This document shows positions 14,680 to 52,564 of a stretch of DNA of 64,000 bases, piece after piece (within the stretch, counting starts at the first letter, position 1; the number at the start of each line of letters is the position of its first letter). The notes under the pieces were generated by a model. It was not told where the DNA came from, did no database searches, and saw only the letters and a list, made by a program, of their open reading frames with translations. Origin of the DNA: Eledone cirrhosa (lineage: Eukaryota); assembly GCA_964016885.1 (NCBI GenBank), contig OZ024743.1, forward strand, positions 193,440,001 to 193,504,000. The letters run 5' to 3'. The position numbers were made by a program, and so were the translations under genes.

Positions 14680-15705
14680 GTAAGTATAGCAGAACAAATG
14701 ATATTCATTGTATTTGTGCTTGAAATGTTAATAATGGTGTAATTGTATAAACATTATCAAGTAGTAATGGGGTTTCCTTTAGATGTTCAGTGTCATAGGG
14801 CAGTTGAATGTTTCATGTCATTCAGAGACAGTCATATATATATAATGATGTCGACGCGATGGTCCTGGTTAGTCAAATTTTTCCTGAATTCAGTCTCTTT
14901 CGTGGCTATGGTCACTGCGGCCCTTCTATCGGTCGCTGTCTTCATTTTTTTGCAAAGCTGTCTAAACGTAATGTTATAACTCTAGGGTTATATACCCTAT
15001 CGAGTGCTTAGTTGCACACCGAAACTGCAATCGTTAGCTTGGCTGCAACCATGGCTTCGTTGATGCTGTACTAAATTTTGTATTATTATCTCCTAGAACT
15101 AACCATTAATTGATTAATTTAATTAGACAATTCTATTGATCGATTAATGGTTTATGTTTGTTTGATAACTTCTAGTTGAGTGCTTAGTTCGGTTTGTGTA
15201 AGGGAATCTTTATTCATTGTTCCAAATTTTGAATTGACCGCCAAAATCAGGGGTTACCTCCCTTTGGGAAAACCATGTGTTTGCTAGCAGCGCTTACTCT
15301 AGCATAAAACACCCGAGCGGACTAGAACGAAAAACTTGTTGACGAAGTAAAACTCCATTGTTCTATCTTCAAAAACCATTAACTTGCAGACCCCTGCAAG
15401 TGGATTTTGTTGATTTCGGATTTACAGAAACCTAGCGGAGATATTGTGGATTACATGTGATGTATGTTATATGGTATATATTATATGTATTATGTGTTAT
15501 GTATGTTGTCGACGTGATGGTCCAGGTTAGTCAAATTTTTCCTGAATTCAGTCACTGCGGCCCTTCTATCGGTTGGTGTTTTCATTTTGCCTTCATATAA
15601 CCTATTGAGTGCTTAGCTGCACATCGAAACTGTATTCGTTAGCTTGGCTGCAACCATGGCTTCGTTGATGCTGTACTAAATTTTGTATATATATATACAT
15701 ATCAG

Positions 15706-15757
15706 GGCTTTCGTGATGATTTCTTTTGAATGAAACAGTTCAGGTCCTGTAGAAGCC
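15706..15757 (+). ncRNA. degenerate hammerhead (family 1)
   Basis: Same layout as 17914-17964 but core reads GUGAUGA; stem I GGCUU../GAAGCC. Confidence 0.5.
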
Positions 15758-16027
15758 ATTTCTATACAAAAAATTTTCCTGAGTTCAGTTTTTTTTGTTG
15801 CTATGGCAATGCAGCCAGACTGTCGGTCGCTATATTTGATTTGCAAAGCTCTCTAAACTTATTGTTATAACTCTGGGGTAATATTCTCCATCGAGTGCTA
15901 AGCTGCATTCCGAATCTGCATTCATTAGCTTGGCCGCCGCCAAAAGCTTCGTTGATGCTGTACTAAAATTTGTATATATATATATATATGAGGGTGTTAA
16001 AGTTTGCTTGAAGCATTGTGAAATGTG

Positions 16028-16503
16028 TAAAATACGTAGTTAAGAAAGCCACAACAATGCAGAGGGAAATCTCAAGGTAGGAAGTGAATGATAGATAGGA
16101 GAAACAGGTGAAAGTGAAAATTGAGAGAGACAAAGATGAAAACAAAACAAAGGTAGAAGGGTTACCGTAGTGGAGATTTAATCCCAATATTTCGAGCTCA
16201 CGCCCATCAACGGGGGAAAATTCCAAAAGAGGGGGAACAGGCCAAGCGGAGAAAGTTGTGATGTCGTTAAGACAGGAATGCCAACCATGCCCCCCCCCCC
16301 CCCCTTTTGGAATTTTCCCCCGTTGATGGGCGTGAGCCCGAAATATTGGGATTAAATCTCCACTACGGTAACCCTTCTACCTTTGTTTTGTTTTCATCTT
16401 TGTCTCTCTCAATTTTCACTTTCACCTGTTTCTCCTATCTATCATTCACTTCCTACCTCGAGATTTCCCTCTGCATTGTTGTGGCTTTCTTAACTACGTA
16501 TTT

Positions 16504-16505
<2 letters not shown>
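16028..16505. repeat. inverted repeat, 202-bp arms
   Basis: 16028-16229 vs 16304-16505, two mismatches seen; explains the twin ORFs 15963-16226(-) and 16307-16582(+). Confidence 0.95.
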
Positions 16506-16585
<80 letters not shown>

Positions 16586-17338
16586 TTCTAAATGCTTCCA
16601 CTTCAGACTAAACTAAAGCTGGCACACTTTAAAATTAACACCCTAGACAAATTAACCCATTAGCAATGTATACTTCTCCAAGATTCCAGAAACCTCTGAC
16701 AACTATATAATGCAGACCAAGCAACCACATAGAGATACCCAAATCAGCTAGCCCTGGAGGGCTTCCATGAAGATAATCGGATAAATGGAAGCATTCAGGT
16801 GTCAAACTAAATGCTTTACATTCCCCTGAATCTGGAAGTTTCTGCTGAAGATAGAATGGGTATTCCAGTGGCTCTGAACCTCTTTTTGTGGCAAAACTTT
16901 CTCCATTCCTCTAAATCTGAAATTTCTGTTAGGGATGGAATTAGTATTTCAATAACTCTGAATCTTCTTTGTGACAAAAAAAAAAACAAGGTCAATGTTG
17001 ATGATTTCTTCTAAGAAAATATACCAAGTAGATATTTTCAGAAGTAATTAACCCCTTCAAACCAATCCCAGCTGGAACTTGTATCCACTCCTCAAAGGGT
17101 CTCTCACAGCAGTCTGCCAACACAACTATCCCCCCTTCTTCTACCCTCTTCTACTACCAGTCACAACCAAGCTATAAGCAGAGAAGGATGGACAGAGAAA
17201 TGAACTCTCTTCTCTTATTTAATTATTATTATTATCACTATTTTTACAAATATGCAACTTAACAATATTCTGCATATCCGCAATTGACAATGCATATAAT
17301 GCTGAAACCGGTATTGTAAATAAATTAATGTTGTGATA

Positions 17339-17712
17339 TGGAGGCACATGGCTTAGTGGTTAGAGCAATCGAAAGGTTGTGAGTTCAATTCTCAGACCGG
17401 GTGATGTGTTGTTTCCTTGAGCAGGACACATTATTTCACATTGCTCCAGTTTACTCAGCTGTAGAAATGAGATGATAGGACTGGGGTCCCTATCATTCCA
17501 CTGCAAAGTGGTCATAGAGGTGCCACGGCAAAAAAGCACCCAGCCCACACTGTAAAGTGGACGTGGAGGAGCCACGGAAAAAAAGCACCCACCACTCACT
17601 GTAAATGAGGTTGGTGTTAGGAAGGGCATCCAGATGTAGAAATCAAGCCAGAATCAGTTCCCGTCCCACCCATGCAAGCAGGGAAAAGCGGACGTAAAAT
17701 GATGATGATGAT
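17339..17712 (+). mobile_element. composite SINE: tRNA-like head + RTE-type 3' tail
   Basis: Head as in family B; tail GTTGGTGTTAGGAAGGGCATCCAG...(GAT)n shared with RTE 3' UTR; copies 5748-6068, 26823-27168, 50061-50406 (all -). Confidence 0.8.
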
Positions 17713-17814
17713 ATCTCACTGAAAAAAATCTCTTCAACATTTTCTACTGAAAAAATCTTTTTCCTTTCTACTATTTGTTTATATATATCAACCCGTGGGT
17801 TACTTTTCTACATT

Positions 17815-17855
<41 letters not shown>

Positions 17856-17859
<4 letters not shown>

Positions 17860-17976
17860 TATAGAAAAGCTTCTACAGGACTAGAACTGTTTCATTCATG
17901 AGAAATCATCATGAGCTTCCTGATGATTTCTCATGAATGAAACAGTTCTAGTCCTGTAGAAGCTTTTCTATATTAA
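17856..17976. repeat. perfect inverted repeat, 56-bp arms
   Basis: 17856-17911 is the reverse complement of 17921-17976. Confidence 0.95.
17914..17964 (+). ncRNA. type I hammerhead ribozyme (family 1)
   Basis: Stem I AGCUUC/GAAGCU; CUGAUGA 17920-26; stem II UUC/GAA with U.U closing pair; GAAA; stem III ACAG/CUGU; GUA cleavage after 17958. Confidence 0.75.
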
Positions 17977-18352
17977 AACATTTATACTCTGCTATGTATT
18001 GAGTACCTTACTTACTGTGGTTACCCCCGATTCAACCCGGAATAACTTATATATATATAACAGTCAATCGACAAGGTCCCAGACCTCATTCACTTAACAA
18101 ATGAAACAATCTTCCTCTTCTTCTTCTTGCTGCTGCTTTTGCTGCTGTTGCTACTACTACTACTACTACTACTACTACTGCTACTGCTGCTGCTGCTACT
18201 GCTGCTGCTACTACTATTACTACTGCTACTACTACTACTACTACTACCCTCACCACTATTACTGTAATGACCTTCTGCTACTTGTGTGTTGTACAATATT
18301 TCTGACTTGTTATGTCTTGTTCAGTAGATAACTATGATATTTCTCTTTGTAG

Positions 18353-18427
18353 GACTCAGACAAAAGAAGAGGAAAAACGGGAAGAGTGTCACACCTCACA
18401 ACTGGTTAGGATACTTAAAATAAAAAT
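18353..18427 (+). CDS. ARMC3: ARMC3 coding exon (charged linker)
   Basis: TQTKEEEKREECHTSQLVRILKIK; TAG acceptor; the GTAAG donor at 18428 gives the phase needed by the next exon. Confidence 0.75.
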
Positions 18428-19586
18428 GTAAGCATTCATGATTAAATATTGTGGAGGTGCGTGGCCAGTGGTAAGGGTGTTGGACTTATGATCATAATGT
18501 TGTGGGTTTGATTCCAGGGTTGGGTTGCATGTTGTGTTCTTGAGCAAAACACTTCATTTCATGTTGCTCCAGTGTACTTAGCTGAAAATGAGTACCAGAA
18601 ATAGTTGGTGGTTTAACCCTGAGATGGACAGGTGTCCTCTCCAGGGGAGAGTCTTGTACTCTCAGTTGCTTCACAACATGAAACTGGTATAAGTACCCTC
18701 CTAACGAGCCTTCTGACTTAAGACAGACTTTATATGATTAACGCATTAGCATTTAAACCAGCCGTATCCGGCCATTATTCTCTCACCTCTTTCTGTTCAA
18801 ACCGGCTGTAACCGGCCACTCATACTTATGTTTAGGTATTGTTCTCAAAATAAATAATATCAAAATCTCCTAGATTCAATATTATGTGAGATAATTATGT
18901 GAGATAAAGCCTTTACCATGAAAATATAATAGTAAATATAGAGTAATGTAAATGCTAAAGAGTTAAATATAACAAGGCATTCTGTATGACACACTAATGA
19001 TTCTGCACTTTCATCATCCTTATTGAGCAATGAATATTGATTTCTAATTTAGGCACAGAGCCAGCAAATATTTGGGGAGGGGTAAAGTTGATTAAATCAA
19101 CCCAGTACTTAACTGGTATTTTATTTTATCAACCTGGAAGAATGATCTTGATAACTGACTGTAGAGAGTTCTACATCTCATAATGGTTTTGATAACTAAT
19201 TGTAGAGTTGTTAATAAGTGAACTGTAAAAATAGATTTTCAAATCTTGTACCACAAAAATTTCACACGTCTAGGGTTTATATCAATTTTAAGTAGAATCC
19301 CTGTTTTGATTGAAGTGAGAACATTTTAAGTTCTTTTGAGTGGGTGAGAGGGAATATGAAAATTCTTTTTGTCATATCTGACACAAATCTAAGGCAGTTT
19401 CTAGTGGTTTGGTATGAAAAGGGTGTATTGATTGATAGGTGGAAACAGCTTAACCCTTTGACCCTATTATCTCACATAATGAATCATAAATTTGTTTTAT
19501 AGCCTGTATTCCTTTATTTTTGAGTTATCTCCCTTCTTATTTGTACTTGTTAGTGGATGTTGAACATTTTGAAAAATTCATTTTAG

Positions 19587-19802
19587 GCGGGCACGAACTC
19601 ATAAAGATCGATATGACAAGACTAAAGAGGATGAAGAATCTTCTACAATAACTGGTGACGAAAAATCCGTGATAGGATCGGAGAGTGAAGAAAAGAATTT
19701 TGTCCTACCTGAAGATCCTGAGCTATGTACTTATGTAGAGGAAGTGATTAAAGATGTTTCTAATGTGAATAGCATTCAAGAACAAATCATTACATTAGCA
19801 AA
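19587..19802 (+). CDS. ARMC3: ARMC3 coding exon
   Basis: RARTHKDRYDK...FVLPEDPELCTYVEEVIKDVSNVNSIQEQIITLA; TAG/GTAAG. Confidence 0.9.
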
Positions 19803-19819
19803 GTAAGTGGTGGAAATAT

Positions 19820-20270
19820 TATCTTCTTCTTCTTGCTCTTGCTCAACGAAGCCAAGATCATCAGAAGCATAATGGTGCTTAGAGCTGACCAGAACCACCA
19901 GTGCCCTCCATCACTGGTGGTTCTGTGCCAGCTCTTCTGCATCCGCCAAGCTGATGTTGAGCCCCCGGAGATCTTCCCTGATGACATCCAGCCATGTGAT
20001 GCAGGGCCTGCCACAGGGTATCTTCCAACCTGCAGCCACTGTATCAAACGTGAGTAAGGCCCTGGTAGGATGATCTGATGGAAAGTGGAGGACATGTCCG
20101 TACTAGTGCATGTGGTGGATAGCTATGAGACGGGAAGCTGTGGGGTGATGCATGGGTGCATACAACACCTTCTTGGAAACGTGGTGGTGCATCTGATGTT
20201 TTTGATGGTCTTCAGCTCTCTGCTATCAAAGTTGTCGATCCTCTTTGCCAGTGTCTTTGTGAGGAGGAGA
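19820..20270 (-). mobile_element. degraded RTE-like LINE 3' fragment (different family)
   Basis: Frameshifted 'GRPRITWLD..REDL..WR..V'-type RTE C-terminus; (GAA)n-like tail. Confidence 0.55.
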
Positions 20271-21169
20271 ATGGAGATATTATTGATTTCAAATTTAGGC
20301 ATAAGGCTAGCAGATTTAGGGTGAAGGGCAAGGTTGATTAAATTAACCCCTGTACATGACTGGGTCTTTATTTTAACAATCCTGCAAGAATGAAAGACAA
20401 ATTTGGGGCAAGGTCAGATTCAATGGGGAAAGGGGGTAGGGGTCAATTGTCCTGGGGCGCCTGCAATGGGGGGGGGGGCTCAGTAGCAACGACCATAGAA
20501 ATTTATTTGTGCCCTCATACAGTGGAACCTTGGTTCACAAACTTAATCCATTCCTGAAGGACGTTCATCACCTGAAATATTTGTAAATCGAAACTATTTT
20601 TCCCATGTGAAATCTTGAGAGAGAAATACAGTGATAGAGAGAGACTGAGTGTGAAAGACAGAGATAGATATATTCCCGGCAATATTCCAAGCTTGTTGCC
20701 AGCCATTGTTGCCAGCTTGCTTGTTCATTACTCAAGATACCGTTCATGAACCGAAAAGTTTTATGTTTGGAAAAATTGTTCATGATGAACTGAGGTTCCT
20801 CTGTATAAACGATTTGGCCCTTTTGTATTGGAATTGATTCTCTTTCTCCATTCTGTAGAGAAGGATAGAGAGGATGAAAGAGTGGAAGAGAGAGGATGTG
20901 AGAAAAAGAGAAAGAGAGTAAAATAGAGAAAGGTAATATGTTCTAAAATATATTGTTACTTCCATATTACACCTGGGAATTTCCAGGTACTCCTAATAGT
21001 ACATATATATAAGATGGAAAAGTGATTAATTGAATGAGAGAATGAAAGTGATAATGGAGAAAAGGGAAGATGTTGGGGGGGGGGGGGCGATATTTATGTT
21101 ATGCATTTTTAAAGCTAGAGGTAGTGCAGTTACACATTTTAAACTTTTGAATTAAATTTATTTCTTCAG

Positions 21170-21332
21170 ATTTGTTTCAAATAAGATGGGTGGAGCTATT
21201 TCTCGAGAACAAGTAAAAAACTTCAGTTGGGAGTTACCTCTTGCCATGCTTCAACACGAATATGCCTCAAATATTGTCTCAATTGGGTCAATTAAATTTG
21301 GTAACCAATTCCACAGAGCTTTGCTATATAAG
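21170..21332 (+). CDS. ARMC3: ARMC3 coding exon (EDR1-like domain)
   Basis: FVSNKMGGAISREQVKNFSWELPLAMLQHEYASNIVSIGSIKFGNQFHRALLYK ('KMGG...HRALLFK' EDR1 motif); CAG/GTATT. Confidence 0.94.
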
Positions 21333-21401
21333 GTATTTGATGCAATAAATCCTGTTTTGTGATAGTGGTGTGGCAGTGCCACAATAAAATACACCTGGGA
21401 C

Positions 21402-22026
21402 CAGGGCTGGATTTAATGGGGAACACATAACAGCTAATGTATTGGCAGCAGTTGCCTAAATGGTAGAGTTTTCATGAGACAACAGACTTATCAACATCTT
21501 CTCTACTTCTAGTTCATGTAATATTTTACGACTCTCAGTTACAAAATAATTCATGAAGCATTAATAATTGTGAAGGTGTGTGACTTTGTGGTTAGGGTAT
21601 TTGGTTTATAATCATAAAGTTGTGAGTTCACTTCCTGGTGGCGTGTTGTGTCCATGAGCAAAACTCTTTATTTCACGTTGCTCCACTCCACTCAGCTGAT
21701 AAAAATGAGTTGTACTTGTAATTTGAATGGCCAGCCTTGTCACATTCTGTGTCACGCTGAATCTTACCGCGAACTATGTTAAGGGTATGCATGTATGTGG
21801 ATTGCTCAGCCACTTACACATTAATTTCATGAGCAGGCTGTTCTGTTGATAAGATCAACAGGAACACTCATCATTGTAACCGACTGAGTGCCTTCTTTCT
21901 TTAATAGATGTTAGCCTCTCATTGGCTACATGTATTCTTTAGTTATTGAATTATCAAAGTGTTGGGAGCCAGGGCTGGATTTAATGGGGGGCAAAGGGGG
22001 CCTCCCAAAGTCTAAATCCAACCCTG
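21402..22026. mobile_element. hAT-like non-autonomous DNA element carrying a captured ARMC3 exon fragment
   Basis: TIRs CAGGGCTGGATTTA / TAAATCCAACCCTG; degenerate 8-bp TSD CCTGGGAC / CCTGGAAG; related ends near 2645-2676, 20409-20460, 29921-29968. Confidence 0.7.
21423..21571 (-). pseudogene. inverted duplicate of ARMC3 2741-2889 (acceptor + 116 nt of exon)
   Basis: 110/116 identical over the exon part; acceptor AG->AA and in-frame CAG->TAG; upstream intron copy continues at 21909-21999 after a SINE. Confidence 0.92.
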
Positions 22027-22374
22027 CCTGGAAGTGTTTGGCATTTGGAAGGGCATTCAGCCATAGAAACTATGCCAAAAAATGAAACATATGTGCAAGA
22101 TGCAGTTGTTTGATATGTCTGGATTCAGAACTCTACATCTTGTCTAACTCCTGCAATTATGGAAAATAGGTGCAAAATGGCAGCAGCAGCTGATGATGAC
22201 AATGATGATGGTGACAATGATAACAATTATTAGTGTATAAACTAAATTGTTTATGGGATTATATTTCAAGAGTAAGAGTAAGGCGTAAGAAATATGCAAA
22301 TGTATATTTTCCATATTTCAAAACATAAAATAAAAAATTGTGGTCTAATATTTGTTTTTCTTTTGTGACTTTAG

Positions 22375-22500
22375 GTATTAGCTGATCGTGTCCTTATAAG
22401 GTGCTCTCTTGTACATGGCGATTTCTTCAAGGCATGGAATATTGTGATGCTTGAAAATAATGAACAAGAAACTTTACATGAAAAACATACTGAAGAAAAG
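22375..22500 (+). CDS. ARMC3: ARMC3 coding exon (EDR1-like domain)
   Basis: VLADRVLIRCSLVHGDFFKAWNIVML...EEK; TAG/GTGAG. Confidence 0.93.
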
Positions 22501-23712
22501 GTGAGATAGCCAAATTACATAATATGTAATCCTTTAGCATTTACATTACTATATGTTTACTATTATATTTTCATGGTAAAGGCTATACCTCACATAATTA
22601 TCTCACTTAATATCGAATCTATGAGATTTTGATATTATTTATTTTAAGAATAATACATTAACATCAGTATGAGTGGTTAGTTACAGCCAGTTTGAACAGA
22701 AAGATAGGATAGAATTCTAGCTGGAAACGGCTGGTTTAGATGCTAAAGGGTTAAGAGAAAATCTCCAGGTTTATCCAGTTTACCACTGAAGCCTATAAGG
22801 AAGCCTCAATGTGGTTACCTAATTTGCTAGAAATAGCAGCCAAATTACACCCTAATGTTAAAAAGCACTCAGTCCACTTTATACAGGGGTTGTACTGGTT
22901 CCATGACAAAAAGCACCCTGCAAATCGGTCACACTGGCATCATGACAAAAAAGCACCTCGTTCACCTTGTTAGGTGGTTGTACAGGTGCCATGATGAAAA
23001 GCACCCAGTCCACTCTGTATGGTGGTTGTGCTGGTGCTATGACAAAAAACAATTGGTCTACCCAGTAAAATGGTTGCACAAGGTGCCATGATGAAAAGCA
23101 CCCAACCCATTCTGTAAACTGGTAGTGATGGTGCCATGAAAAAAGCAATACATGCTGTAATGTGGTTGGCATTAGGAAAGGCATCTAACCATAGAAAACA
23201 GCCAAAAAACAGTGTATGAGCAAGACATGGTCACCTGACCTGGCTAGCCTCATAACATGACATGAATATTAATTAAAATATGGATGAGCTGAGAGGGAGA
23301 GAAACTGTGTATAAGAGGAATCAAATGTAGTGTGCAAGAGAGAAAACTGCACTGGTATGGCCATGTGATGTGTTTGGAAAATGATAGTTGGATGAAGAAA
23401 TGCCTGGAGTTCCAAGTAGAAGTAAGTTACAGCAGAAAAAGACCAAGGAAAATCTGGGCAGTGGAGATGAAAGAACACATCATGTGGAGGGATGTTGTGC
23501 TGGAAAAGACATGTCCAACTTATTCAAACATGGAAAAGTGTATGTAAAAAGGAGGGAGGGGTGGAGGGGGAGAAAGAGCATGACGGCAGATTGAGTGTTT
23601 TAGGTTTTGGAATAAAAAATGGAATGCAGATATTAAATTTTATTCTGTAGAAATACCGAAGATAGCAGCAATGTCTAAAACATACACTGTCGACATTTTA
23701 TTTCTTTTTCAG

Positions 23713-23820
23713 AAGAAGGAAATTTTACCTCTGAAAACCTACATTGTTGATCTCATTCACGATCCTGGTCAACTCATTTTAGTTGACACTCCAGAGGCAA
23801 TACGTTATTGTACGATGTAA
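23713..23820 (+). CDS. ARMC3: ARMC3 terminal coding exon
   Basis: KKEILPLKTYIVDLIHDPGQLILVDTPEAIRYCTM* ('YIVDL...PG.L' EDR1 end); stop TAA 23818-23820. Confidence 0.92.
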   Translation, partial: KKEILPLKTYIVDLIHDPGQLILVDTPEAIRYCTM

Positions 23821-26814: not shown

Positions 26815-27746
26815 TATATATATCATCATCATCATCATTTAATTTTACGTCCGCTTTTTCCCTGCTTTCAAGGGTGGGACGGGAACTGATTCTGGCTTGA
26901 TTTCTACAGCTGGATACCCTTCCTAACACCAACCTCATTTACAGTGAGTGCTGGGTGCTTTTTTTGCCGTGGCACCTCCACGGCCACTTTGCAGTGGAAT
27001 GATAGGGACCGCAGTCCCTATCATCTCATTTCTACAGCTGAGTAAACTGGAGCAATGTGAAATAAAGTACCTTGCTCAAGGAAACAACACATCATCTGGT
27101 CTGAGAATTGAACTCACAACCTTTCGATTGCAAGGCCAATGCTCTAACCACTAAGCCATGTGCCTCCATAATATATATAAGCATAGAAAGCTTGACATTC
27201 TCCACACCTACTCTCCCAGAGTCCTGTCACCATAACAAAACCTTGTTTCATAATGTGACAATTTGTCTAGCCCTTGTAATAGGAAAATAGACGTTAAACT
27301 GTGATGATGATGATATATAGGTTTAAACGTTTAACTAATATATTTCTTCCATATACTGTGCTGTTGCTTTTGTTATTTCTATTTACCTTTTACCTATATA
27401 TATATATATGTGTATATATTATAAAGAGTCAGGACCTGACGGCTGAGCTCTTGCAGTATCAACAGCTAGTTCCAGATTGATTCAGTCTGGAACTAGCTGT
27501 TGGAATGGAGTGGCAAGAGCTCAGCTGTCGAGTTTCAACTCTTTATAATATAACCATACACTACTAGCCCAAGTATCGAGTACTCTGTTAAGTAATGGTC
27601 TAACCAGTTTCAAACTGAATCCATCCTGATTTATATATATATATATAGTAATAATAATAAATGTGAAGACTAAAATCTGAAGAGGGCTCGATAAGGATAA
27701 TATATATAAAACCGTAGAGCAAATATTTATTAAAATAACAGATTAA

Positions 27747-27797
27747 AGTTTAAGCAAAGAATCACTGCTTTCACCCTTAACGAGATCTTCTGAAACT
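27747..27797 (-). ncRNA. degenerate hammerhead (family 4)
   Basis: Stem I AGUUU/AAACU; core CAGAAGA (one change); GAAA; stem III AGCA/UGCU; CUU site; sister copy at 31141-31185 has CUUAAGA. Confidence 0.5.
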
Positions 27798-31073: not shown

Positions 31074-31210
31074 ATATTTATTAAAATAACAGATTAAAGT
31101 TTAAGCAAAGAATGGCTGCTTTCACCCTTAACAGGATCTTCTTAAGATCCTGTTAAGGGTGAAAGCAGCGATTCTTTGCTTAAACTTTAATCTGTTATTT
31201 TAATAAATAT
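31074..31210. repeat. inverted repeat, 67-bp arms, 3-nt spacer
   Basis: 31074-31140 vs 31144-31210, one mismatch. Confidence 0.95.
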
Positions 31211-32082
31211 TTGCTCTCCGGATTTTATATATTTTTACATATATATTATCCTTATTGAGCCCTCTTCGGATTTTAGTTTTCACATTTATTATTATCACTA
31301 TATAATTAATTACAACAGTGATATATAAAAGTCTGAATGAGTTGGGTTCTATAATCCAAGAAACTAAAGTACCTGTATATGTCACTGTTGTAACTAATTA
31401 TACCTAACTCATCCAATGGACTGAGTGCTCTTAACCTTGGATATTTCTACCAAACTTATATGACAGTATATATATATATAGTTTTTGCTATACACATTGT
31501 AAATGTGGTTGGTGTTAGGAAGGGCATCCAACTGTAGAAAACCTGCCAGACAGTCCTATGCAAGCAAGACAATCACTCTTGCCTCAAGTGGGAATACCCC
31601 CGTCCAAACCCATGCAAGCGTGGAACACGGACGTTAAACGTTGATGATGATGATGATGATAACATATATATACATATACATACATATTTATACACACACA
31701 CATATATATGTACATAAATACATACTGTTGCCTGAATGTGTGGTTGTAATAGTTAAATAAAGAACCCTTAATATGTAATCATAGAGGTATATATACTATA
31801 TTGTATAAAATAGATATCAAACTGGCTTGTATCTTCCTAGGTATGCAGAGTTTCCAAAATCACCTTGCTTCGGGACACTCTGTACAGCTAGGAAGGTATA
31901 TGCCAGTTTGACATGTATTTTATACAATATATATATATATATATACATAAAATTAGAATTTTATGTATATATATATATATATATATACATAAAATTAGAA
32001 TTTTATTTGTCGCCCTAGCATATGTACATGTATATATGTGTGTATATGTATGTGTATATATATATGTGTGTGTGTGCATACT

Positions 32083-35865: not shown

Positions 35866-36057
35866 CATTTAAATCTTTTATGTTTATTACACCTGGTGAT
35901 ATCCCCGATTGTCTTGTGATATGGTCTGATAATGTAAGCCGGCCATAGAAATACATATTGTGTAATCGTGCAACATTAAGATATATATTGGAATCCAGCC
36001 TTCTGTTTTCATTGAAGTACATATAATATATATATATATTTATATACTTGATATACC

Positions 36058-36089
<32 letters not shown>

Positions 36090-36131
36090 TATATACTTGA
36101 TATACCTGTATATAAATATATATATATATAT

Positions 36132-36446
36132 ATAATATAAGATCAAAAGATGGTTAAAGGAGTTCCATGTATTTTATTATGCGCATTTCAAAAACAAACA
36201 TCATCATGCAATAATATTTGTGTTTTCATCAGATAAAACAGGAGAACATGATATGAAGGCTAAAAAACACTTGTGGATAGTGCAGTTTTAAATCAACATA
36301 TCCACAAGTGTTTTTTAGCCTTCATATCATGTTCTCCTGTTTTATCTGATGAAAACACAAATATTATTGCATGATGATGTTTGTTTTTGAAATGCGCATA
36401 ATAAAATACATGGAACTCCTTTAACCATCTTTTGATCTTATATTAT
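36132..36446. repeat. inverted repeat, 148-bp arms, 19-nt spacer
   Basis: 36132-36279 vs 36299-36446, no mismatch seen. Confidence 0.95.
36338..36408 (+). ncRNA. type I hammerhead ribozyme with palindromic stem III (family 2); mirror copy on - at 36170-36240
   Basis: Stem I UGUUUUAU/AUAAAAUA; CUGAUGA 36346-52; 15/16-bp stem II; GAAA; AUGCGCAU palindrome; AUA cleavage after 36400. Confidence 0.8.
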
Positions 36447-39400
36447 GTATACTCCAGTCCTACAAACTGTAGAGTGCTTCTTATCCGATATCTGCATTGC
36501 TTTATTGTACTACAATAAAACTCACCTCCTATATATATATATATATATATATACATATTTATATACTTGTATATAAATATATATATATATATATAGTTAT
36601 ATACATATTTATATACTTGTATATAAATATATATATATATATACATACACATACACACACTCTGTGCAATAGTTTTTAAAACTAGCCCAGATAGTTCCAT
36701 AAAAAAACAAACAACTTAATTCTCAGTTAACAAGGAACACTAAATTATTGTTAAAACTGAAGAAAAAATTGAACAAAGTTTTTGCTGAACATAGATGACA
36801 TGATATGTCACTGCTCTATTAACAGTTCACTACAACACTGATGAAGCTGAAGCTGCTGCTGCTGTAGATATTCATTATCAAGCTACAAGGTATGGATTCA
36901 TCACATCTAAAAATTGTTTCAATCGTTTCACTTAGCAATTAATATATTTCCATAAAATACATTTACTTTGGTTTCAAATGTGGAAAAATTAATTAGGAAA
37001 TTTGAAGAAAAGAATTTGAATTAAAATAGCTGAAATAAAGTGAAAAAAAAAAAAAATTCAAAACAAAAATTGGATAAAATTTAATGTTTACTGAAGTGAA
37101 ATATTTTTATAATGAAAATAATAATATTTTATTGTTTTATTCTAGTATTTCAGAGCCATACCAATAGGACAACATAGCTAAGAAGTCTGTAAGCAGGGAA
37201 AACATTTATTTCTTTAACAATTTTAATTTAAATAAAAATTCAAAATACCAAGAGTCAATTGTCTAGATACATAAGAATCAAAAGAATGATTTGTCAGTTC
37301 TTTTACTGATATTGGTAAAAGAAAATTTGTTGAGAACTTCAATTGTTTTTTTAAAATTTGTTTTGATAGTTCACAATCAATAAGCATGAAGCAAAATTGT
37401 GAATTGTTATTTGTGCCTACATGGTAGACAGCTACCATAGTGACAACAGCAATGCTCTAGTCATTACTGCCAACACTATTTTGTCAGATAGCTAGGATTT
37501 GAAGTTAGCATTTCAAGAAAAAAGAGATTTGGAAGACAACATGAGGGACTGTTAAAAATAATTTTGAGATGTTTTTTTTATTAGATTTAACAAAATGGAA
37601 TTCAATTGTTTGAAAGTAAATATCTGTATTTGTTAACTCTTGTATTCTTTAAACATTTTTATTTATGAAGTATTAAATTTATTAGAAAACATTTTAATAT
37701 TTTCGATAATTCCAAAGTAAAAGTTTTTCTTAACTTCTTGCTAGAAAAAAAAAATATACTATGATAGAATAATTCATGCAAAATATCTTTTAATTGTTAT
37801 ATCTAAATATATAGCTTCTCTCAATAGAAGTTACATACACAACTTAAATTAATTGATTTTATTTTAGTTTCAGTAGTATTTTAAAACTTTTTTGATAACA
37901 ACCCTTCAGAAACAGTTTTTGGCCCTATAATAAAAGAAAACAAAACTGCCCCTGACTTCATGATACTAAACTGTCCATTTTAAAGTCTTCATATTACTCA
38001 AACCACACAAAGGCATAGATACGTCCTCTTCGACACTCTCCAAGGTTCCCAATGGATCCATATATAATGGATGGTACATCTGAAATATATTGGGACATTA
38101 TCTTTAATTCTTGTTTTTCTTCCTATTCTCCACTGAACCCTACCTCTTTCATCCTTCAACTGATTTTGTTGCCTTAACCCATTAGCATTGATATTACTCT
38201 AAATTTACTATTCTATATTCATGTTAAATCTAAAGTCTATGAGATTTTGATGATGTTATTGTTTATTTTAAGAATGCTATCTTAACGTCAGTGTGAGGTG
38301 CTGGTTACAGCAGTTTCAAAAAGGGGAAAGAATTCTGGCCGGATACAGCTGGTTTAAATGTTAAAGGGTTAATATTGGTTAATATTTACAACCCCACTTG
38401 CATTGTAACAGCTTCCAAGACATAACCACTACTCATATTTATATTAACACTTTTCAACAGAAAATTTATGTAAGAATTTTTTTATTAAGTTGGGGTACAA
38501 GTATCAGTTTATATATATATATAAAAAAAAATCCTCTAAATTTTTGATTATTTTCAAAATTGATTTCCAATCTAGGCACTAAACTATATATTAACCCCAG
38601 TAATTTGTTGGGAGAAGAAAGTCGAGTATACAACCCCGGTATTTCACTGGTACTTTATTTTATCTACACCAGAAATGATGAAAGGCAAATTTAACTTTGG
38701 TGGGATTTGAACTCAGAATGTAAAGAACCAGAACAAAATACCACAATGGTATTTTATCCAACGCTCTACCAATTCACCTAATCCACCACAATATTATTTT
38801 CAAAACAAATTGAAACAAGTTGACAGTGTATTTCATTAGAAATATGGTAAGAAAAGAGTTACTTATTGATCTATCTAAAGTCTGTCTGGAGCTCAGAGGC
38901 TCATGAAGCCGGCGCTTATCTCGGTTTTCGTGAAATGAAGTGACTGAGCGTACAAGATTCCTTCCTGGATAGGATGCCAGTCCATTGCAGGGTTAAACCC
39001 GCAGCTATTGCTAGTACTCATTTTCAGCTGAGTATACATGTGTATATATATATATATGGTTTTCAGAAAATCCTGTATAAGTATGAAAGCAAAAATTGTT
39101 TGCTTAAACTTTTAATCTGTGCTAGTAATATATATATATATATATGTGTTTATGTGTATGTAAGTATATATATATGCATGAGAAAATGGACGTTAAATGA
39201 TGATGACGATATATATATATACATATACATGATGATGATGATGATGATATATATATATAAGGTAGATTATATTCATTTATATATATGTATATATATGAAA
39301 TGCTGCAATAATTGTTTAGCTGCTGAGAGTTGCACAATATGGACATATAAATTTATAGAAATTGCGTAAGTTCAACCAATAAACATAACAAAGTATGGAA

Positions 39401-43572: not shown

Positions 43573-44112
43573 TTTAAAAAGATGTCACAAATTATCAAAT
43601 ATAGCAATTGTGTTTATCTGTTTACATTATGGTGGGGATTGGAGAGCTTTAGATATAAATAAAATTGCTTGCAATGAGTCTTTTTCATAAACAACATGTC
43701 AGTCAAACGTGGAAAATAGAATTTGAGATAGCAGATAAACTGTATGGGTATGAAAAATGATTATTTAACTGTTGAAAGCACATCAAATCAAGTCACTGCA
43801 TAAAGAGGACTCAATAACAGTGGTTCAGTGAAAATTAATAAGATAAAATTGAGAAATATAATATTTATATTGACAATAAACTCCAGTACTTTAAGCATCT
43901 TGAGATGATGTTAGTTTTCTTGCCATCTTCCACAGCCAGTGTGTTTTTAGCAGTGACTAGCTTTTCCTTTCTTCTTGGAAGAAATGAGAACATCAAAGCA
44001 GAACTATCTGCAACTATACCCCTTCTATATCAGTTCGGACATTAAAAAAAAAAAAGCATAAAATATCAAATAAAATACAGTTGAGTTACAAACATGAACT
44101 CACTAAATTTTA

Positions 44113-45803
44113 TCATACATACTCTTCGTCTGATTTTGCCCCAACATTTGTAACAACTTCAGGCTGCAAATTTTGGCTTTGCTCATTGTCCGGCAATGAT
44201 GCGATATCTTTAAAAACACCAACTAACTTTTCAAAATTTGGCCCCCATGTAAGCAGATAATCTAAGTCAAACGAGCCTACTGTACCTCGATTTTTTGATT
44301 TGTCTTCATCAGAAGACACAAGGGTACTATATGATTCACCGGCAGAATCTAAGCCATCGTAATCAAATGTCCTATTGTCCACAGGGCTCTCATCATTTTC
44401 ATTCTCTACTTCAGTTAGTTTTGAATATATCATTGAACCAGGCTCAAAGTCATTACGTACTCGTTCAGTGTCATATTCAAATTCTGAACAAGTAAAAGAG
44501 TCATTTGCACTGCCATTTGAGCTAGAATCTTGTGCATCCATGAGACCACTGCTATTCAGGTTATCGCTTCCTTTACCCCATCTAGCAATGTTCTCATCAC
44601 TTGAACTTACTGATTCCCGTATACTTTCAGGATGGGTAGAATCAGGACAAGCATTTAGTCTATTTACTTCCTCCACAGAGAATCCTTTCATACGATTCCC
44701 TCTACCATTATTAGAGCTACTTCTTGGAGCTGGCTGAGGTTTTAATGCAACTTTAGGTTTAGATTTGCCAGGTTTTCCTGTACAGTTGTCTGAGGATGCT
44801 GAGTGGGAATTCCAATGATTATTTGAGCTAGGAGTCAGTACACAGGGACTTTGATGTGCCAGGAGATTCATTGGGCTTTGTCTAATTCCTACAGGTGCAG
44901 GGCTGCTGCGAGCTAAATTGTTGAGGTGCATGGGGCTACTGCGAGCTGGTACAGATAAAGGTCCATTATAATTTAAAGCATTTGAAGCTGGTACATTACC
45001 GGACCACATATTTTGTTGAGGGTTTGCAATATAAGGATGTCGATAACCAATCAGGTTAGAACTAGGTTTGTATTTATTGATCTTTCCATCTCGAAATCCT
45101 TTATAATGAGTAACAATATCAATATCTGAAGGAGCTATACTGCTGGCATTCTCCAAATCATAGTGTTCTGGCACATCTTCATTGAGGTGAACACTTTGAG
45201 AGAGATCTCCATTTTCAATTATTACAGTTCCGTCTTCCATTTCAAGAGGAACTACAGGATGACTTTCAGATTCAATAATATCAGGTCTTGCCATACAACT
45301 ATTGTCATGAGCCTTTTGGGCTAATTCTTCAAGAATGTGATTACGAATAATTATTTCATCAGGAATACCGTTTCCTTCCACATATTCAGCTTCGCTGTAA
45401 GTTTGACTGTTGTTTTTTAAATTACTATTATTCCTTCTCTGATTGCAAAACTTATTTAATACTCCAGATTTGCTGTTCTTATTATGTTGCTGGTTACTGT
45501 GCCGCCGGTGGCGCCGCCAGTACACAATAAGACCAACAATAATCAAGATGAGAATTAGAAGAATTAATAGAGGAAGTAAAATCTTCAGCAGTAAGGGAAG
45601 GTCTATTGAAGAGTAAGGAAGACACTTATATGTTGATGCTTCTACTTCACATGTCATATCAGTTCCGCAAGGATTTGTAGAACACAAACTGGGGCAATCA
45701 GCACTGACATTTCCTACGGCTGTCACATCAAATCTATCTGTAGAGCCACCAAATGGCATTTTCTGACCATTGAGAAAGAAGTCTTCTAAGCAGCCTTCAA
45801 AAC
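44113..45803 (-). CDS. FAT4: Fat/FAT4 terminal exon: LamG end, EGF, TM, cytoplasmic domain
   Basis: GFEGCL, TM LLLKILLPLLILLILILIIVGLIVYW, Fat/Fat4 motifs HYDLENASSIAPSDIDIV.HYK and SFTCSEFEYD, C-terminus EEYV*; CAG acceptor at 45804-45806. Confidence 0.93.
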
Positions 45804-47384
45804 CTGAAAATAAAAAGAGAGAAAAATAAAACAAAAAATGTAAGATAAAGAGAAAATATATGATATATGGCGGGGATGTATTTGTTTTGCAAGGTTTTTG
45901 ATACATCACCGCCATAGCACAGGCTTGTGCCAAGCCAGTAGGATATTGAAACACAAAATACTAGCGTGGAAGATGGACGTTAAACGAAGATGATGATGAT
46001 GATGAATTTTATTTATATTGAAAACCAAACCAAACCAAACCAAACAGTGAATGTGTTTTACTATTTTGGCAATATTAGGATAACATGACCCTCTTCAAAT
46101 ATAATGGTTTCCGATTTACGCACAAGGCCAACAATTTTAGGGAGGGGAAAGTCAATTAAATAGACCCAGGGCATTACTGGCGATTTATTTTATTGATCCC
46201 TTTAGGATAGGAGGCAAAGCTAACCTCGGTGAGATTTGAACTCAGAACAAAAAGGACTGTAACTCTATGCTGCAAAGCATGGTGTACCCTCCCCAAATAT
46301 AACAATAGATGATATATGATGTTACTGAAATAAAATTAAAACAGCTTAACGCTTTCGTGATGGTATTTCTAATTAAATACACTCATCATTATCAGAAAAC
46401 AGTACAGCTCCCATGACATTAGGAAACATTTTTTCATGTTCAGAGTTGCTGAAGCATGGAACAAACTACCTGCATCAGTTGTTAGCTGTCAGGTCACTGC
46501 ACCCTTCAAAACTTCCATTTGCCAACACTACATCTGATATTCCCCCTCCATACACACACACGCATGTATATGTGTCTGTGTATATCATGACTCATACACT
46601 GTTCACTTTCCTGACATTTGTACATTATTCTATGTACTATACATGCAATTTGATGAGTTGTAGTGCACCTGAGTACTATACACAATAATAATAATTATTA
46701 TTATTATTGTTTAACATCTGCTTTCCCTGCTAGCAAGGGTTGGATGAGTCGTCAGCATACTAATGTTGGTACTCAAGCAGAGCTACTGACCCCACAGATG
46801 GGCTTGGAGCCTGCATCTTGTTTACATGCATTCCTGCTGTCTATGGAGTGCTCAGATAAGTCAGCTGCCTGCAACTCATGTACATAAGATTCTGCACACT
46901 ATCAAGTGCATTTTATCATAATATTAAACTGTGAAACTTCCATGTGTCTCTCTCTATATATATACCCACCTTTATCCCATACATATTATATATAATGCAC
47001 AGCTATATAATCCTTTATAATCCTAGAGAACAAATGATTCAAATTCAACAAAAATTGTAATTGTGTAAATAATTTCTTGTTTAATTAAAGATTTTAAATT
47101 ATAGATAAATGAAAAAACAATGTGAGTGTATTTGAATACATATAAAATGAGAAAACTCATGGCTTGAACAGCTAAATGCTGTGAAAGACATAAAATCGGC
47201 AAAAATGCCACAGAGGACAGAAACCAGTGGCTAGTGGTTTGTTTCTCTGTTGACCATTGGCTATTGGTCTCTGTCCTCTGACACATTTTGCCCATTGCTG
47301 ACTTTGACAGAATTTAGCTGTTTTAAAAGCTGTTCTAACGATGAGTTTTCTCATTTTTATATGTATTTAAATTATAGTTTTTAC

Positions 47385-47528
47385 CTGGTATGGTTTCTTT
47401 ATGAATGGATAATGTATGTTTTGTGTTGGCCAAAAACATCACTTCAACATCCACAGAAGAAATATCTAGTGGATTTGAGATAAACACCTGAGTTTTTTCA
47501 TTTTCACCTTCAACTGTTACACTGTCAC
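47385..47528 (-). CDS. FAT4: Fat/FAT4 exon (LamG2)
   Basis: GDSVTVEGENEKTQVFISNPLDISSVDVEVMFLANTKHTLSIHKETIP; CAG/GTAAA; fills the missing LamG segment in phase. Confidence 0.8.
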
Positions 47529-47751
47529 CTGCAATAAATGATGATATAATGAGTTGATAGTCTCTCTATTAAAATACCCAAAATATTCATTTGCACTTTT
47601 ACTAGTTTTAGTCATTAGACTGGCCATGCTAGGGCACTGCTTTAATTTAGTTGACCATATCAAATCCAGTATTTATTTTTTCCAAGCCTTACTATATTGA
47701 TTTTTTTTTTTTTTTTTTACAAACAAATGTAAACATAAACATGAACTAATA

Positions 47752-47789
<38 letters not shown>

Positions 47790-47916
47790 CCAAAAGTTAA
47801 ACAAAGTTCATTGATTAATCAATAAATATAGTTTTACAATAGATTAGAAGCACTCAACAGTTAAAGTTTTCTGGAGTTATTAATATTAATAAATATAGTT
47901 ATTAATATTAATAAAT

Positions 47917-49330
47917 AAAGTTAGGATTGGCAATGAGTATAGCGAGGAATTTAGCGTACAGGTTGGGGTCCACCAGGGCTCTGTTCTTAGCCCTCTCCTG
48001 TTCATCATAGTCCTGCAGGCAATAACGGAGGAGTTTAAGACCGGATGCCCATGGGAACTCCTGTATGCTGATGACCTCGCACTCATAGCTGAATCTATGG
48101 TAGAACTAGAGAATAAATTCCAAACCTGGAAGCAGGGACTAGAGAGAAAGGGCCTCAAAGTCAACATGACAAAGACTAAGGTCCTTATAAGTAGACGAGA
48201 AAACAGAACCCAGATCCCCTCAGGGAAATGGCCTTGCTCAGTATGTAGGAAAGGTGTAGGTAGGAACTCCATTCTTTGCCCCAAATGCAAACAATGGGTA
48301 CACAAGAGATGTAGCGGGATCTCAGGAAGCTTAATTAAGAATGTAGGATTCACATGCAGCAGCTGTGCTGAAACAGCAAGCAAACAGCCACAGGAAACAA
48401 GTACCACCAATCTCTGGGAGGGCCCTGTAGAAACAGTAGACAGCTTCTGCTACCTAGGTGACCGAATTAGCAACGGAGGTGGGTGCTCAGAAAGTACAAT
48501 AACTAGGGTAAGAACGGGATGGAAGAAGTTTAGGGAACTACTACCACTGCTAGCTGCAAAAGGCTTCTCCCTCAGAATGAAAGGCAGACTGTATGATGCG
48601 TGTATCCGAACAGCGATGTTGCATGGTAGTGAGACCTGGGCGCTGAAGGTGGAAGACTTACGTAGATTAGAGAGAAACGAAGCCTGCATGCTCCGATGGA
48701 TGTGTAACAGTAATATACGTGAACGACAAAGCATAAATGAATTGAGAGAGAGACTGAGCATAAGAGGAATCAAATGCTGCGTGCAGGAGAGGCGGTTACG
48801 CTGGTATGGACATGTGATGCGTATGAAGGATGACAGCTGCATAAAAAGGTGCAGAGCACTAGAAGTTGATGGAAACCGCGGAGTGGGGAGACCCAAGATG
48901 ACTTGGGATGAGGTGATAAAAGCCGACCTTACCCAACTACACCTCCTAAAGTCAATGACACACGACCGTGACTTCTGGCGTCACGCAGTAATACAGGGTA
49001 CCCGACCTCCCATGGGTACATGCTGAAGCATATAAACAATATGCCCCCCCCCCCCCACCGCAAGGTGGTCGTGGAGGTGCCACGGCAAAAAAGCACCCAG
49101 CCCACACTGTAAAGTGGACGTGTAGGCGCCACGAAAAAGCACCCAGCACTCACTGTAAATGAGGTTGGTGTTAGGAAGGGCATCCAGCTGTAGAAATCAA
49201 GCCAGATCAGTTCCTGTATGAGCAAGGCATGGTCAGCCGACCAGACACTGCCCACAACAGGACAACCCGTCTAACCCATGCTAGCGTGGAAGAACGGACG
49301 TAAAACGGTGATGATGATGATGATGATGAT
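47917..49330 (+). mobile_element. RTE-clade LINE, related subfamily, 5'-truncated
   Basis: GVHQGSVLSP, YADD, PHD-like finger, RWYGHV; (GAT)n tail 49310-49330. Confidence 0.92.
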
Positions 49331-49612
49331 AGACATTCAACGTAATCAAAATATATTTTATTATATATATTTCGGAGGTACTGTGCTGTTTTTTCAGTAC
49401 GTCCTCATCAGATAAAATATATAAATTGATGTGTGACATATCTCAACTGTGCTGATGGTTCAATGCCAAGACTGGAATTGAACCATCAGCACAGTTGAGG
49501 TATGTCACACATCAATTTATATATTTTATCTGATGAGGACGTACTGAAAAAACAGTACAGTACCTCCGAAATATATATAATAAAATATATTTTGATTACG
49601 TTGAATGTCTAT
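49329..49612. repeat. inverted repeat, 136-bp arms, 12-nt spacer
   Basis: 49329-49464 vs 49477-49612, two mismatches seen. Confidence 0.95.
49519..49590 (+). ncRNA. type I hammerhead ribozyme with palindromic stem III (family 3); mirror copy on - at 49351-49422
   Basis: 11-bp stem I; CUGAUGA 49530-36; stem II GGA-c-GUACUG/CAGUAC-c-UCC; GAAA; AUAUAUAU; AUA cleavage after 49579. Confidence 0.82.
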
Positions 49613-50966
49613 ATTTATTAATATTTTGAATTAATATATATATATGAAGTATTTCCATAGGAAGGGTAAAGGAAAGGAGAGTGGTCTATTTTAATTATAC
49701 CCCCCTTTCATACCTTTAACACACACACACCGACCACTTTCATTCTTTCCACCCTTCATAACCTATTAGAGACTTTGAGCACTTTTTTATTTTTAACCTT
49801 TAACCATACTTTTATCTACAACCCAAAACACTCACATATTCACATTAATCCCATATCCTTTGTCATACCCTTAACACACACACACTGACTACCCTCATTA
49901 CTCTATCATAGCCTTTTTCTTTCTTCCTAATAGTTATACTCTTTCTACATACACCTTTACTTTTCATTATTATAATAACGGGAACCCCAATTCTATATTT
50001 CAGATAATATATTCATAGATATATATGGATATATATGCCTGTTTATGTATGTATGCATTTATCATCATCATCATCATCATTTCATTTTACGTCCACTTTT
50101 CCCTGCTTGCAAGGGTGGGACGGGAACTGATTCTGGCTTGATTTCTACAGCTGGATGCCCTTCCTAACACCAACCTCATTTATAGTGAGTGCTGGGTGCT
50201 TTTTTGCTGTGGCACCTCCACGACCACTTTGCAGTGGAATGATAGGGACTGGGGTCCCTATCTTCTCATTTCTACAGCTGAGTAAATTGGAGCAATGTGA
50301 AATAAAGTGTCTTGCTCAAGGAAACAACACATCGCCCGGTCTGAGAATTGAACTCAACCTTTCGATTGCAAGGCCAATGCTCTAACCACTAAGCCATGTG
50401 CCTCCACTTATGTATGTGTTTATGTATAATTGTGTGTGTATTCTTGTATTTATATGTGTATATGTATAATTATATATGTGTGTATGTATGTGCATGTCTA
50501 TGTATGTTTATGTATATGTTCTGCATGTACGTATGTGTGCATGAGTGTATAAATGTGTGTATATATATTATGTATATCCATATTTGTATATGTGTGTGTG
50601 TGCGTGCGTGTATATATTTATGTACGTATGTATATGTGCTGTATATCTTATAGTGTATATAATTTTATCCTTTTAATTTTTTTAGCTGTGTATATACATA
50701 CTTTTCCTATCATATGCATTTCCATACTTCTATGTCTGCGTACATGCGTACACGCATATGTATATTTATGTATTTTTATATTTTTTCTTTCTTTTCTTTT
50801 TTCATATATGTAAATGTATGTGTGTGTGTATATTTATTTATGCATGTGTGTGCGTATGTATGTACGAATATGTTTTTTTTATATATATATACACATATGT
50901 GTGTATGCATGTATATGTGTGTGTATATATATATATACGAATGGAAGTTTAGTAAAATCTCTCTCT

Positions 50967-52118
50967 ATCATCATCATCAACGTTTAACGTCCGTGTTCCA
51001 TGCTTGCATGGGTTTGGACGGGGGTTTTCCCACTTGAGGCAAGAGTGATTGTCTTGCTCGCATAGGACTGTCTGGCGGGTTTTCTACAGCTGGATGCCCT
51101 TCCTAACACCAACCACATTTACAGTGTGGGGCTGGGAGGTTTTTACCATGTTGCCTACACGGCCACATTACAGCGTGGACTGTGTGTTTTTTTGTCGTGA
51201 CACCTACACGATCTCATTTGTTTCGGCCTGGATGTTGTGGCACCAGCATAACTTTACATTGAAAGGGGCGGTGTGGATGGGGTGGGGGCGGGGGTGGATG
51301 GGGTGGGGGTGGTGTGACGGGGGTGTATTTTGTTAGAGATGCCTACTGACTGTAGTAGGTTTTACTTTGTATTTAGGTAAGGCGGGTCTTCTCTATTACT
51401 GAGTACCGCCAAAGGTCTCGGTCCAGTGACATTGTCTTGGAGAGGTGTAAGTGTGTGAGGTCGGAATTTATCAGCTCGTCCCAGGTTTTTCTGGGTCTGC
51501 CTACTCCGTAGCTACCGTCTATCTTTATTGCCCTGCACTTTGTTATACAGCTGTCGTCTTTCATGCGCATCACGTGACCATACCAACGTAGCCTTCTCTC
51601 AAGTAAACAACATCTGATCCCTCTTATTTCTAATTTTTTCCTTAGTTTGCTTATGCTTTGCCGTTCACGTATGTTACTATTACACATCCAGCGGAGCATG
51701 CAAGCTTCGTTCCTCTCTAGTCTGCGTATATCCTCTGCACACAATGCCCAGGTCTCACTGCCATGCAACATTGCTGTTCGTATGCAGGCATCATACAACC
51801 TGCCTTTCATTTTTATGGAGAACCCTTTAGTGGCTAATAGTGGTATAAGCTCTCTGAACTTTTTCCATCCAGTTCTGACTCTAGCTACTGTACTTTCAGA
51901 GCACCCTCCCCCACTGCTGATTTTGTCACCCAGGTAACGGAAGCTGTCCACTATTTCTATAGAACCCTCTGTGCAATTGAAAGAGCTAGTATTTTGTGGG
52001 CACTTGCTGCTACTTATTGCACCAGAGCACCGGCCACATGTAAAATCTATGTTCTTAGTTAGCTTACCTGTGATCCCACTACATCTTTTATGCACCCATA
52101 CTTTGGATTTGGGACATA
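50967..52118 (-). mobile_element. RTE-clade LINE, 5'-truncated
   Basis: Near-identical to the 3' part of the 32325-34832 copy. Confidence 0.92.
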
Positions 52119-52120
52119 TG

Positions 52121-52153
<33 letters not shown>

Positions 52154-52564
52154 GTTCTGTCTCATGAGGACATATCCACGTAAGTTACTGTTATGTAACA
52201 ATGGCAAGTGACTCAGAAATGTGCATAACGTTTGATCATTCAATAAATTGAAGTATATATAGAAAAGTAGAAACTGCCTTCATGTTATATATATATATAG
52301 ATATGACAAGCTTATGCAGATTCCTCACCACTAAATTCCACTCACAAAGCATTGGTCATGTCAAAGTGAAGCCACAGTAAGGGACACTTGCCTAATGCTA
52401 TGGGAAGGAAACACCTTTATTATATCACCATGCTTGCACCTTGATAATTTTCTACTTTTTCTTTTTTTACTTTCATAAAGTAGAAATTCTGACTATTCAG
52501 TTGTGATAGAAAAAAAAATGAATAAAACAGAAACCAAAGAAATGCGTATAAACTAGAATTGTAC

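Follow-up and report, generated by a model that had tools for sequence, protein, structure and literature searches.

Palindromes and hammerhead motifs

The stretch analysed here (the window, 64 kb; positions 193,440,001 to 193,504,000 of contig OZ024743.1) is part of the AT-rich, 3.0-Gb genome assembly of the animal Eledone cirrhosa (GCA_964016885.1). It contains long palindromes with hammerhead ribozyme motifs, and their sequences point to the pseudo-long terminal repeats (pLTRs) carried by Penelope-like elements (PLEs). Scanning for palindromes revealed five long ones in the window, at 17856-17976, 31074-31210, 36127-36451, 49329-49612 and 16028-16505. The first four are mutually unrelated in sequence and all adjoin (TA)n tracts, which bears out what a first-pass annotation had reported of them from the DNA letters. 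They are referred to as the 18-, 31-, 36- and 49-kb palindromes and define the families F1, F2, F3 and F4, respectively. The palindrome hairpins have predicted folding energies of -92 to -249 kcal/mol. The copies of the four families at these places are:

17856..18046, + strand: F1 stub; inverted arm without tail at 17856-17914, extra G at 17913, putative start A at 17914
17914-17964, + strand: inner parts of the F1 stub; hammerhead with its core at 17920, followed by the tail to about 18046
31074..31300, + strand: F2 stub; both arms end inside the CAGAAGA core, a complete hammerhead is present on neither strand, tail on the + arm
36127..36530, + strand: F3 stub; each strand has an intact minimal hammerhead with a palindromic loop 3, cores at 36346 (+) and 36232 (-)
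49329..49637, + strand: F4 stub; each strand has an intact minimal hammerhead, cores at 49530 (+) and 49411 (-)

With a strict descriptor of the type I hammerhead, matches were obtained on both strands of the 36- and 49-kb palindromes, but on the + strand only of the 18-kb palindrome. An unselected 1.264-Mb sample, made up of the window with 400 kb of surrounding DNA and of four arbitrarily placed 200-kb blocks, gave 84 matches to the descriptor versus 1 in the reversed-sequence control. An Rfam scan at E<=1 returned no hammerhead family, only generic miRNA hairpins. Minimum free energy folding of the isolated motifs formed stem I for F1, F3 and F4 and not the full hammerhead fold, a result uninformative on activity. 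Judged by primary sequence, the CUGANGA/GAAA/UH core together with stems I and II of a type I hammerhead is present in the window copies of F1, F3 and F4.

A hammerhead had been described in each of the four palindromes. This holds for the 18-, 36- and 49-kb palindromes and fails for the 31-kb one, whose core had been called degenerate. CAGAAGA, with CAGA replacing CUGA and the stems kept, is indeed the core of the F2 family throughout, and what sets this copy apart is its 5'-truncation within the core on both arms. The family-wide CAGA, seen for example at 27745-27797 on the - strand, is possibly a natural variant of the hammerhead core. In F1, stem III is short (3 bp, with a loop of 8 nt) and a U-U pair closes stem II; the - arm of the 18-kb palindrome is without C3 and without stem I. 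F3 and F4 are minimal motifs with a six-base palindromic loop 3. The - arm of the F3 stub starts at the family start A (36301), and the tail is on its + arm. The left arm of the F4 stub is interrupted by a (GAT)n-ended repeat. A tail continuing from one arm, reported for all four, was found at the 18-, 31- and 36-kb palindromes; the extension of the 49-kb palindrome is not a family tail, because its other arm is cut by the repeat. Across the assembly, 922 copy candidates were counted for F1, 1312 for F2 and 619 for F4, and a pattern search for F3 gave 9855 exact 30-mers.

Linked open reading frames

Seven of the ten long F3 loci that were fetched carry a related long open reading frame (ORF) on the strand of the pLTR. 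The intact ORF of locus L122 (L122:1229-3694, 821 aa) contains YRDD and a C-terminal nuclease region and is flanked by direct and inverted pLTRs, and the F3 tail is directly continuous with the ORF leader. ORFs of this type, though broken, are also linked to F1 (L321, L322), F2 (L331-L333) and F4 (L313, L314). Tandem and inverted pLTRs are arranged around the ORF at L121-L128, L321 and L332. The 821-aa ORF has 18 homologues, all unnamed, and among its Atlas neighbours, at 0.96-0.98, are GIY-YIG clusters with a family share of 26-50%. These data support the assignment of all four families to PLEs with ORFs of the reverse transcriptase (RT)/GIY-YIG type, in agreement with the Penelope origin suggested by the first-pass annotation. 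The L122 ORF is also rich in asparagine along a stretch that separates RT from endonuclease, which recalls the N-rich inserts in PMC3846280.

Several motifs resemble those of the Hydra clade of PLEs. DKT instead of DKG was present in F3 and F1 (L321) and was not seen in F2 and F4, whose examined ORFs are broken or partial. The CxCx5C linker, together with CxxC and CxH around the endonuclease E and N and without CCHH, was recognized by eye in F3 and F2; in F4 the linker only was found by eye, and in F1 linker, CxxC and CxH were not seen. The N-terminal RW motif, RWK in the Hydra clade, is RWT or RWI in F3 and RWR in F1 and F2. Tandem F3 units are spaced by 3.3-3.9 kb, hence not under 3 kb. Target site duplications were not discernible in the flanks, which consist of (TA)n. 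By DKT, CxCx5C, CxxC/CxH and RW the families match the Hydra clade, with RWK varied and a unit of more than 3 kb.

Outer ends and junctions

Paired copies were compared end by end; most of these loci were the top search matches and not a random sample. Their outer ends lie at two fixed sites, one tailed and one tail-less. The longer arm is the one with the tail in 9/9 F3, 21/29 F1, 16/19 F4 and 19/20 F2 pairs, and tails are one-sided and about 65-100 nt long. Junctions between the arms were distinct in all 9 F3 pairs, 23 of 29 F1 pairs, all 19 F4 pairs and 18 of 20 F2 pairs.

High copy number, and tandem hammerhead arrays of other families nearby, could suggest self-propagating palindromic units of a MITE-like (miniature inverted-repeat transposable element) or retrozyme-like kind. 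Palindrome centres vary from copy to copy, however, and full-length elements with an ORF terminate in these same sequences, which leaves this explanation a negligible probability. Two specific forms were rejected: a MITE or fold-back transposon, that is, a fixed palindromic unit copied whole, since the junctions differ among copies; and, for the window families, a non-LTR retrozyme of non-coding tandem units, since these families have autonomous ORFs and occur as stubs.

Inner ends and the extra G

The inner ends of the arms cluster at one position per family, namely -69 (F3), -6 (F1), -68 (F4) and about -5 (F2) relative to core C3. The base at this boundary is a family-specific A, which is preceded by a pyrimidine in longer copies. 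In F1 and F4 the sequence TATAAAT lies 29-30 nt upstream of the boundary A.

Genome-wide patterns that required a non-C before the boundary A gave 299 matches for F4, 3847 for F3 and 728 for F1, and the preceding letter was counted by eye among the first 100 matches listed per family. Against an expectation of 22%, it was G in 50/100 of the listed F4 matches (p=1e-9), 42/100 in F3 (p=9e-6) and 38/100 in F1 (p=3e-4). One base further out, G occurred in 3/100 (F4) and 10/100 (F3) of the matches listed, and at other F4 boundaries in 5/22. The element's own upstream sequence was present in at most about 3 of the 300 matches counted, and therefore the matches are truncations at the boundary A. In some insertions the G is present on both arms.

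An inner hot spot of this kind might also reflect an RT pause, a splice site or a self-priming point on an antisense template, the latter as in the model of PMC3846280, with the G stemming from microhomology at the junction. In F1 and F2 the hot spot falls on the 5' strand of hammerhead stem I, and an intron of Drosophila Penelope is reported to end at helix I (PMC4209133). The F2 hot spot has a T-tract and AG; a pause or splice-site origin is plausible for that family. In F3 and F4, by contrast, the hot spots are located about 69 nt upstream of the hammerhead without a preceding AG; moreover, the G is found after TA-rich flanks too, and only at position -1. Overall, we consider this explanation improbable.

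Formation of the palindromes

Family membership, ORF linkage, fixed outer ends, the fixed inner A, the excess of G and the differing junctions are read directly from the DNA. On this basis the palindromes are 5'-truncated, head-to-head insertion stubs of four PLE families, probably formed by RT running off the 5' end of a capped sense RNA. The boundary A would then correspond to the transcription start and the G to a copied m7G cap.

As to the pathway, we give roughly even chances to the pairing of two cDNAs resembling strong-stop products, for which a dimeric PLE particle would prime on both target strands, copy as far as the cap across a hammerhead still uncleaved, and join the ends. The endonuclease would nick (TA)n on both strands; in the 5' pLTR of the capped sense RNA, RT would begin downstream of the hammerhead, at two internal sites, and copy some 70-270 nt up to the cap. 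The two short cDNAs, one per internal start site and primed on opposite (TA)n strands, would join at their 3' ends by microhomology, and a single cDNA alone would give rise to a solo stub. Since the cDNA spans the cleavage site, the template would have been uncleaved. The long hairpin is a by-product without detectable effect on core survival.

With the same PLE origin and the same run-off at the cap, the second arm may instead have arisen when one cDNA snapped back and primed itself, one of the tails being removed by the endonuclease. Such tail resolution was proposed in PMC8557442, and short palindromes occur at many junctions. Differences are smaller within pairs than between insertions (0.7 vs 3.2 in F3, 2.8 vs 8.8 in F4 and 2.8 vs 5.3 in F1), a divergence pattern that does not separate snap-back from two cDNAs. 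Snap-back would, however, need later trimming, as several tail-less arms extend further 5' than the tailed ones (F4: L045, L051, L312, L315; F3: L098; F2: L090), and PMC11167929 traced both ends to RT start sites. Snap-back appears an unlikely, though not a far-fetched, source of the second arm.

Several observations weigh against the derivation from two cDNAs of a capped RNA. At some junctions the G can be copied from the partner arm by way of microhomology, and the A seen at most F1 junctions arises from folding at the self-complementary AGCT. At -30, F3 is without a canonical TATA box. The F2 boundary resembles a 3' splice site as well, and G was present in 4/9 of the F2 copies examined. 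The greater likeness of arms within an insertion (F3, F4, F1) fits snap-back equally well. The putative transcription start is placed from DNA ends. The ORF assignment is founded on motifs and Atlas neighbours, and direct Pfam and PDB sequence searches with the 821-aa ORF returned no name.

Solo copies, host gene and other palindromic sequences

In addition to the palindromes, the window holds solo copies and part of a host gene:

15705..15776, + strand: older solo F1 copy, core change C3G
27646..27797, - strand: solo F2 copy with complete family core, starting at 27792, and tail
39055..39140, + strand: diverged solo F2-related copy (the one at 39064), G8A; absent from the first-pass annotation
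52153..52232, + strand: solo hammerhead-like motif, G5C; antisense to the Fat4-like gene
35905..35975, + strand: possible decayed hammerhead-like motif, layout fitted by eye only
44116..64000, - strand: 3' exons of a Fat4-like cadherin gene by homology mapping, last coding exon 44116-45804

The Fat4-like gene continues for about 47 kb past the window, and several of its top named relatives are molluscan. The 49-kb palindrome and the motif at 52158 lie between homology-mapped exons of this gene; as the gene is on the - strand, the motif at 52158 is antisense to its host. The 31- and 36-kb copies lie 8-13 kb past the last Fat4-like coding exon. Exon-like open frames on the + strand (near 38; 19573-19803; 23584-23817), belonging to a putative second gene, gave no Pfam match. 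Relatives of the motifs at 52158 and 35909 were absent from the 2.05 Mb of this genome compared; their layout was judged by eye and there is no family core with which to compare them.

A fifth palindrome, overlooked at first, is 478 bp long (16028-16505), has 213-nt arms that are 98% complementary and runs into (TA)39. It has no hammerhead core and no relatives in the same 2.05 Mb; it possibly records the same process in another family.

The 1.264-Mb sample contains about 11 hammerhead-bearing family groups. Extrapolation from the 84 matches, of which about 40 are in tandem arrays, gives a number of motifs in the order of 100,000 genome-wide. Retrozyme-like tandem arrays with units of 468 bp and 310 bp and an intact hammerhead per unit are placed head to head like PLE inversions (L146-L150 and the L222 region; C4 ~193.657-193.704 Mb and C3 ~150.074-150.119 Mb). 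The pair closing stem II is U-U instead of G-C in four unrelated families, namely F1, F2 and two array families. In three places on two contigs, a repeated unit with a C2H2 zinc-finger ORF lies beside F1 and F4 pLTR stubs (L326-L328), which may reflect segmental duplication or pLTR-linked mobilisation.

Core integrity in paired and solo copies

As suggested in the first-pass annotation, the antisense arm would silence an otherwise harmful ribozyme, so that intact cores persist in palindromic intronic copies or become editing-switchable. It had observed that intact cores all stand behind an antisense arm and that solo copies are all mutated. In the window, the solo copy at 15706 is indeed mutated in its core (C3G), but the one at 27747 has no core change and departs from the canonical CUGA only as the whole F2 family does; the 31-kb palindrome, on the other hand, is cut within its core. 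Transcription does reach the antisense arm first, but it would do so in any head-to-head inversion.

For a wider comparison, 161 copies that matched 17 natural reference motifs were collected from the 1.264-Mb sample and 41 tandem-array units were removed, leaving 120. A copy was counted as paired when a head-to-head partner lay within 600 bp; the arms of one pair are not independent. Intact cores were found in 32/55 paired and 38/65 solo copies (p=1.0), so that the predicted enrichment failed to appear. The result was similar for full-span copies only (32/42 vs 38/55, p=0.50) and for young copies (16/20 vs 17/22), and core changes per site amounted to 0.030 in both paired and solo copies. Without the reference copies, the counts were 25/35 paired and 30/47 solo (odds ratio 1.41, 95% confidence interval 0.50-4.1). 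Enrichment of intact cores in paired copies was thus absent from the sample, also when split by age.

Exact intact F4 hammerheads (n=20, every fifth listed) were without an inverted partner in 13 cases, one of which was examined over 500 bp only; in 5 cases the partner lay no further than 600 bp away and in 2 at a distance of about 2 kb. The solo motifs at 27747, with its family-intact core, and 52158, antisense to the host gene, do not fit silencing either. Furthermore, a single minimal PLE hammerhead failed to cleave in vitro (PMC4209133), and protein was required by another (PMC11167929); therefore there may be little to silence. In favour of silencing, the hairpins are predicted to be very stable, the point estimates of the odds ratio are 1.3-1.5, and for 24 of the first 30 exact matches listed in the young family F3 an inverted partner lies no more than about 5 kb away. 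Only one solo copy in the flanking DNA is on the sense strand between Fat4-like exons, and its core is altered (n=1). At the sampled scale self-silencing is unsupported and we regard it as very improbable, while a modest effect, or one confined to sense-intronic copies, is possible.

Implications

The architecture of the palindromes is a known by-product of PLEs; the families are new and the mechanistic gain is modest. The single-base inner boundary with the extra G in three families provides a cheap genome-scale test of PLE template polarity. If two cDNAs of a capped RNA were indeed joined, the genome would hold thousands of fossil clones of the 5'-RACE (rapid amplification of cDNA ends) type that map the transcription start of each family, and the template question would be settled against antisense self-priming. 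The mRNAs of F1 and F2 would, moreover, carry the hammerhead at their extreme 5' end, so that cleavage would remove the cap. Where transcribed, the many perfect hairpins genome-wide could be substrates for editing or small-RNA pathways.

Comparison with known systems

Inverted 5'-truncated copies with a one-sided tail and (TA)n targets have been described for PLEs, and the formation of such inverted structures, from a sense or an antisense template, was called open (PMC8557442; PMC3846280). The insertion units of endonuclease-bearing (EN+) PLEs in these papers share with those of E. cirrhosa the inverted copy, the tail at one end, the hammerhead in the pLTR, the AT-rich or (TA)n target and the partial tandems. 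They differ in that many insertions here are pLTR-only stubs, whose inner ends converge on one base preceded by an extra G, and in tail length (about 65-100 nt vs 30-40 bp reported). No statement on a cap-derived G or a run-off signature for PLEs was found in the literature searched, which covered few subscription papers. In PMC11167929, RT was reported to start at two internal places that match the tail and to extend both strands; a dimer was predicted, the template was uncleaved, and hammerhead cleavage was protein-assisted and dispensable for insertion. The transcription start of Drosophila Penelope lies inside the pLTR (PMC2377424).

The Hydra clade, as characterized in PMC8557442, has the RW, DKT, CxCx5C linker and CxxC/CxH motifs, canonical hammerheads and (TA)n targets in common with the present families. 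It differs by RWK instead of RWT, RWI or RWR and by a tendency to units generally under 3 kb, compared with about 3.3-3.9 kb in F3. Few families of this clade were listed outside cnidarians in that paper, whereas at least four abundant ones, placed by motifs, occur here.

The minimal type I hammerheads described for metazoan PLEs (PMC4209133) resemble ours in the type I core, the short palindromic loop 3 of F3 and F4 and the mostly single, dispersed motifs; in Schistosoma, pairs of minimal hammerheads on opposite strands, separated by 100-700 bp, were recorded. Unlike these motifs, F1 combines a 3-bp stem III and an 8-nt loop with a U-U pair closing stem II, and F2 has CAGA for CUGA. The hammerhead density is far above that of Xenopus, for which 9,000 motifs were given in the same paper. 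Finally, the untemplated 5' G of L1 and SVA insertions has been ascribed to the cap (PMC3287187). As in those elements, the extra G of the PLE stubs stands where the cDNA meets the presumed RNA 5' end; unlike in L1 and SVA, it is found on stubs of about 70-270 nt, because priming would be internal and near the 5' end.

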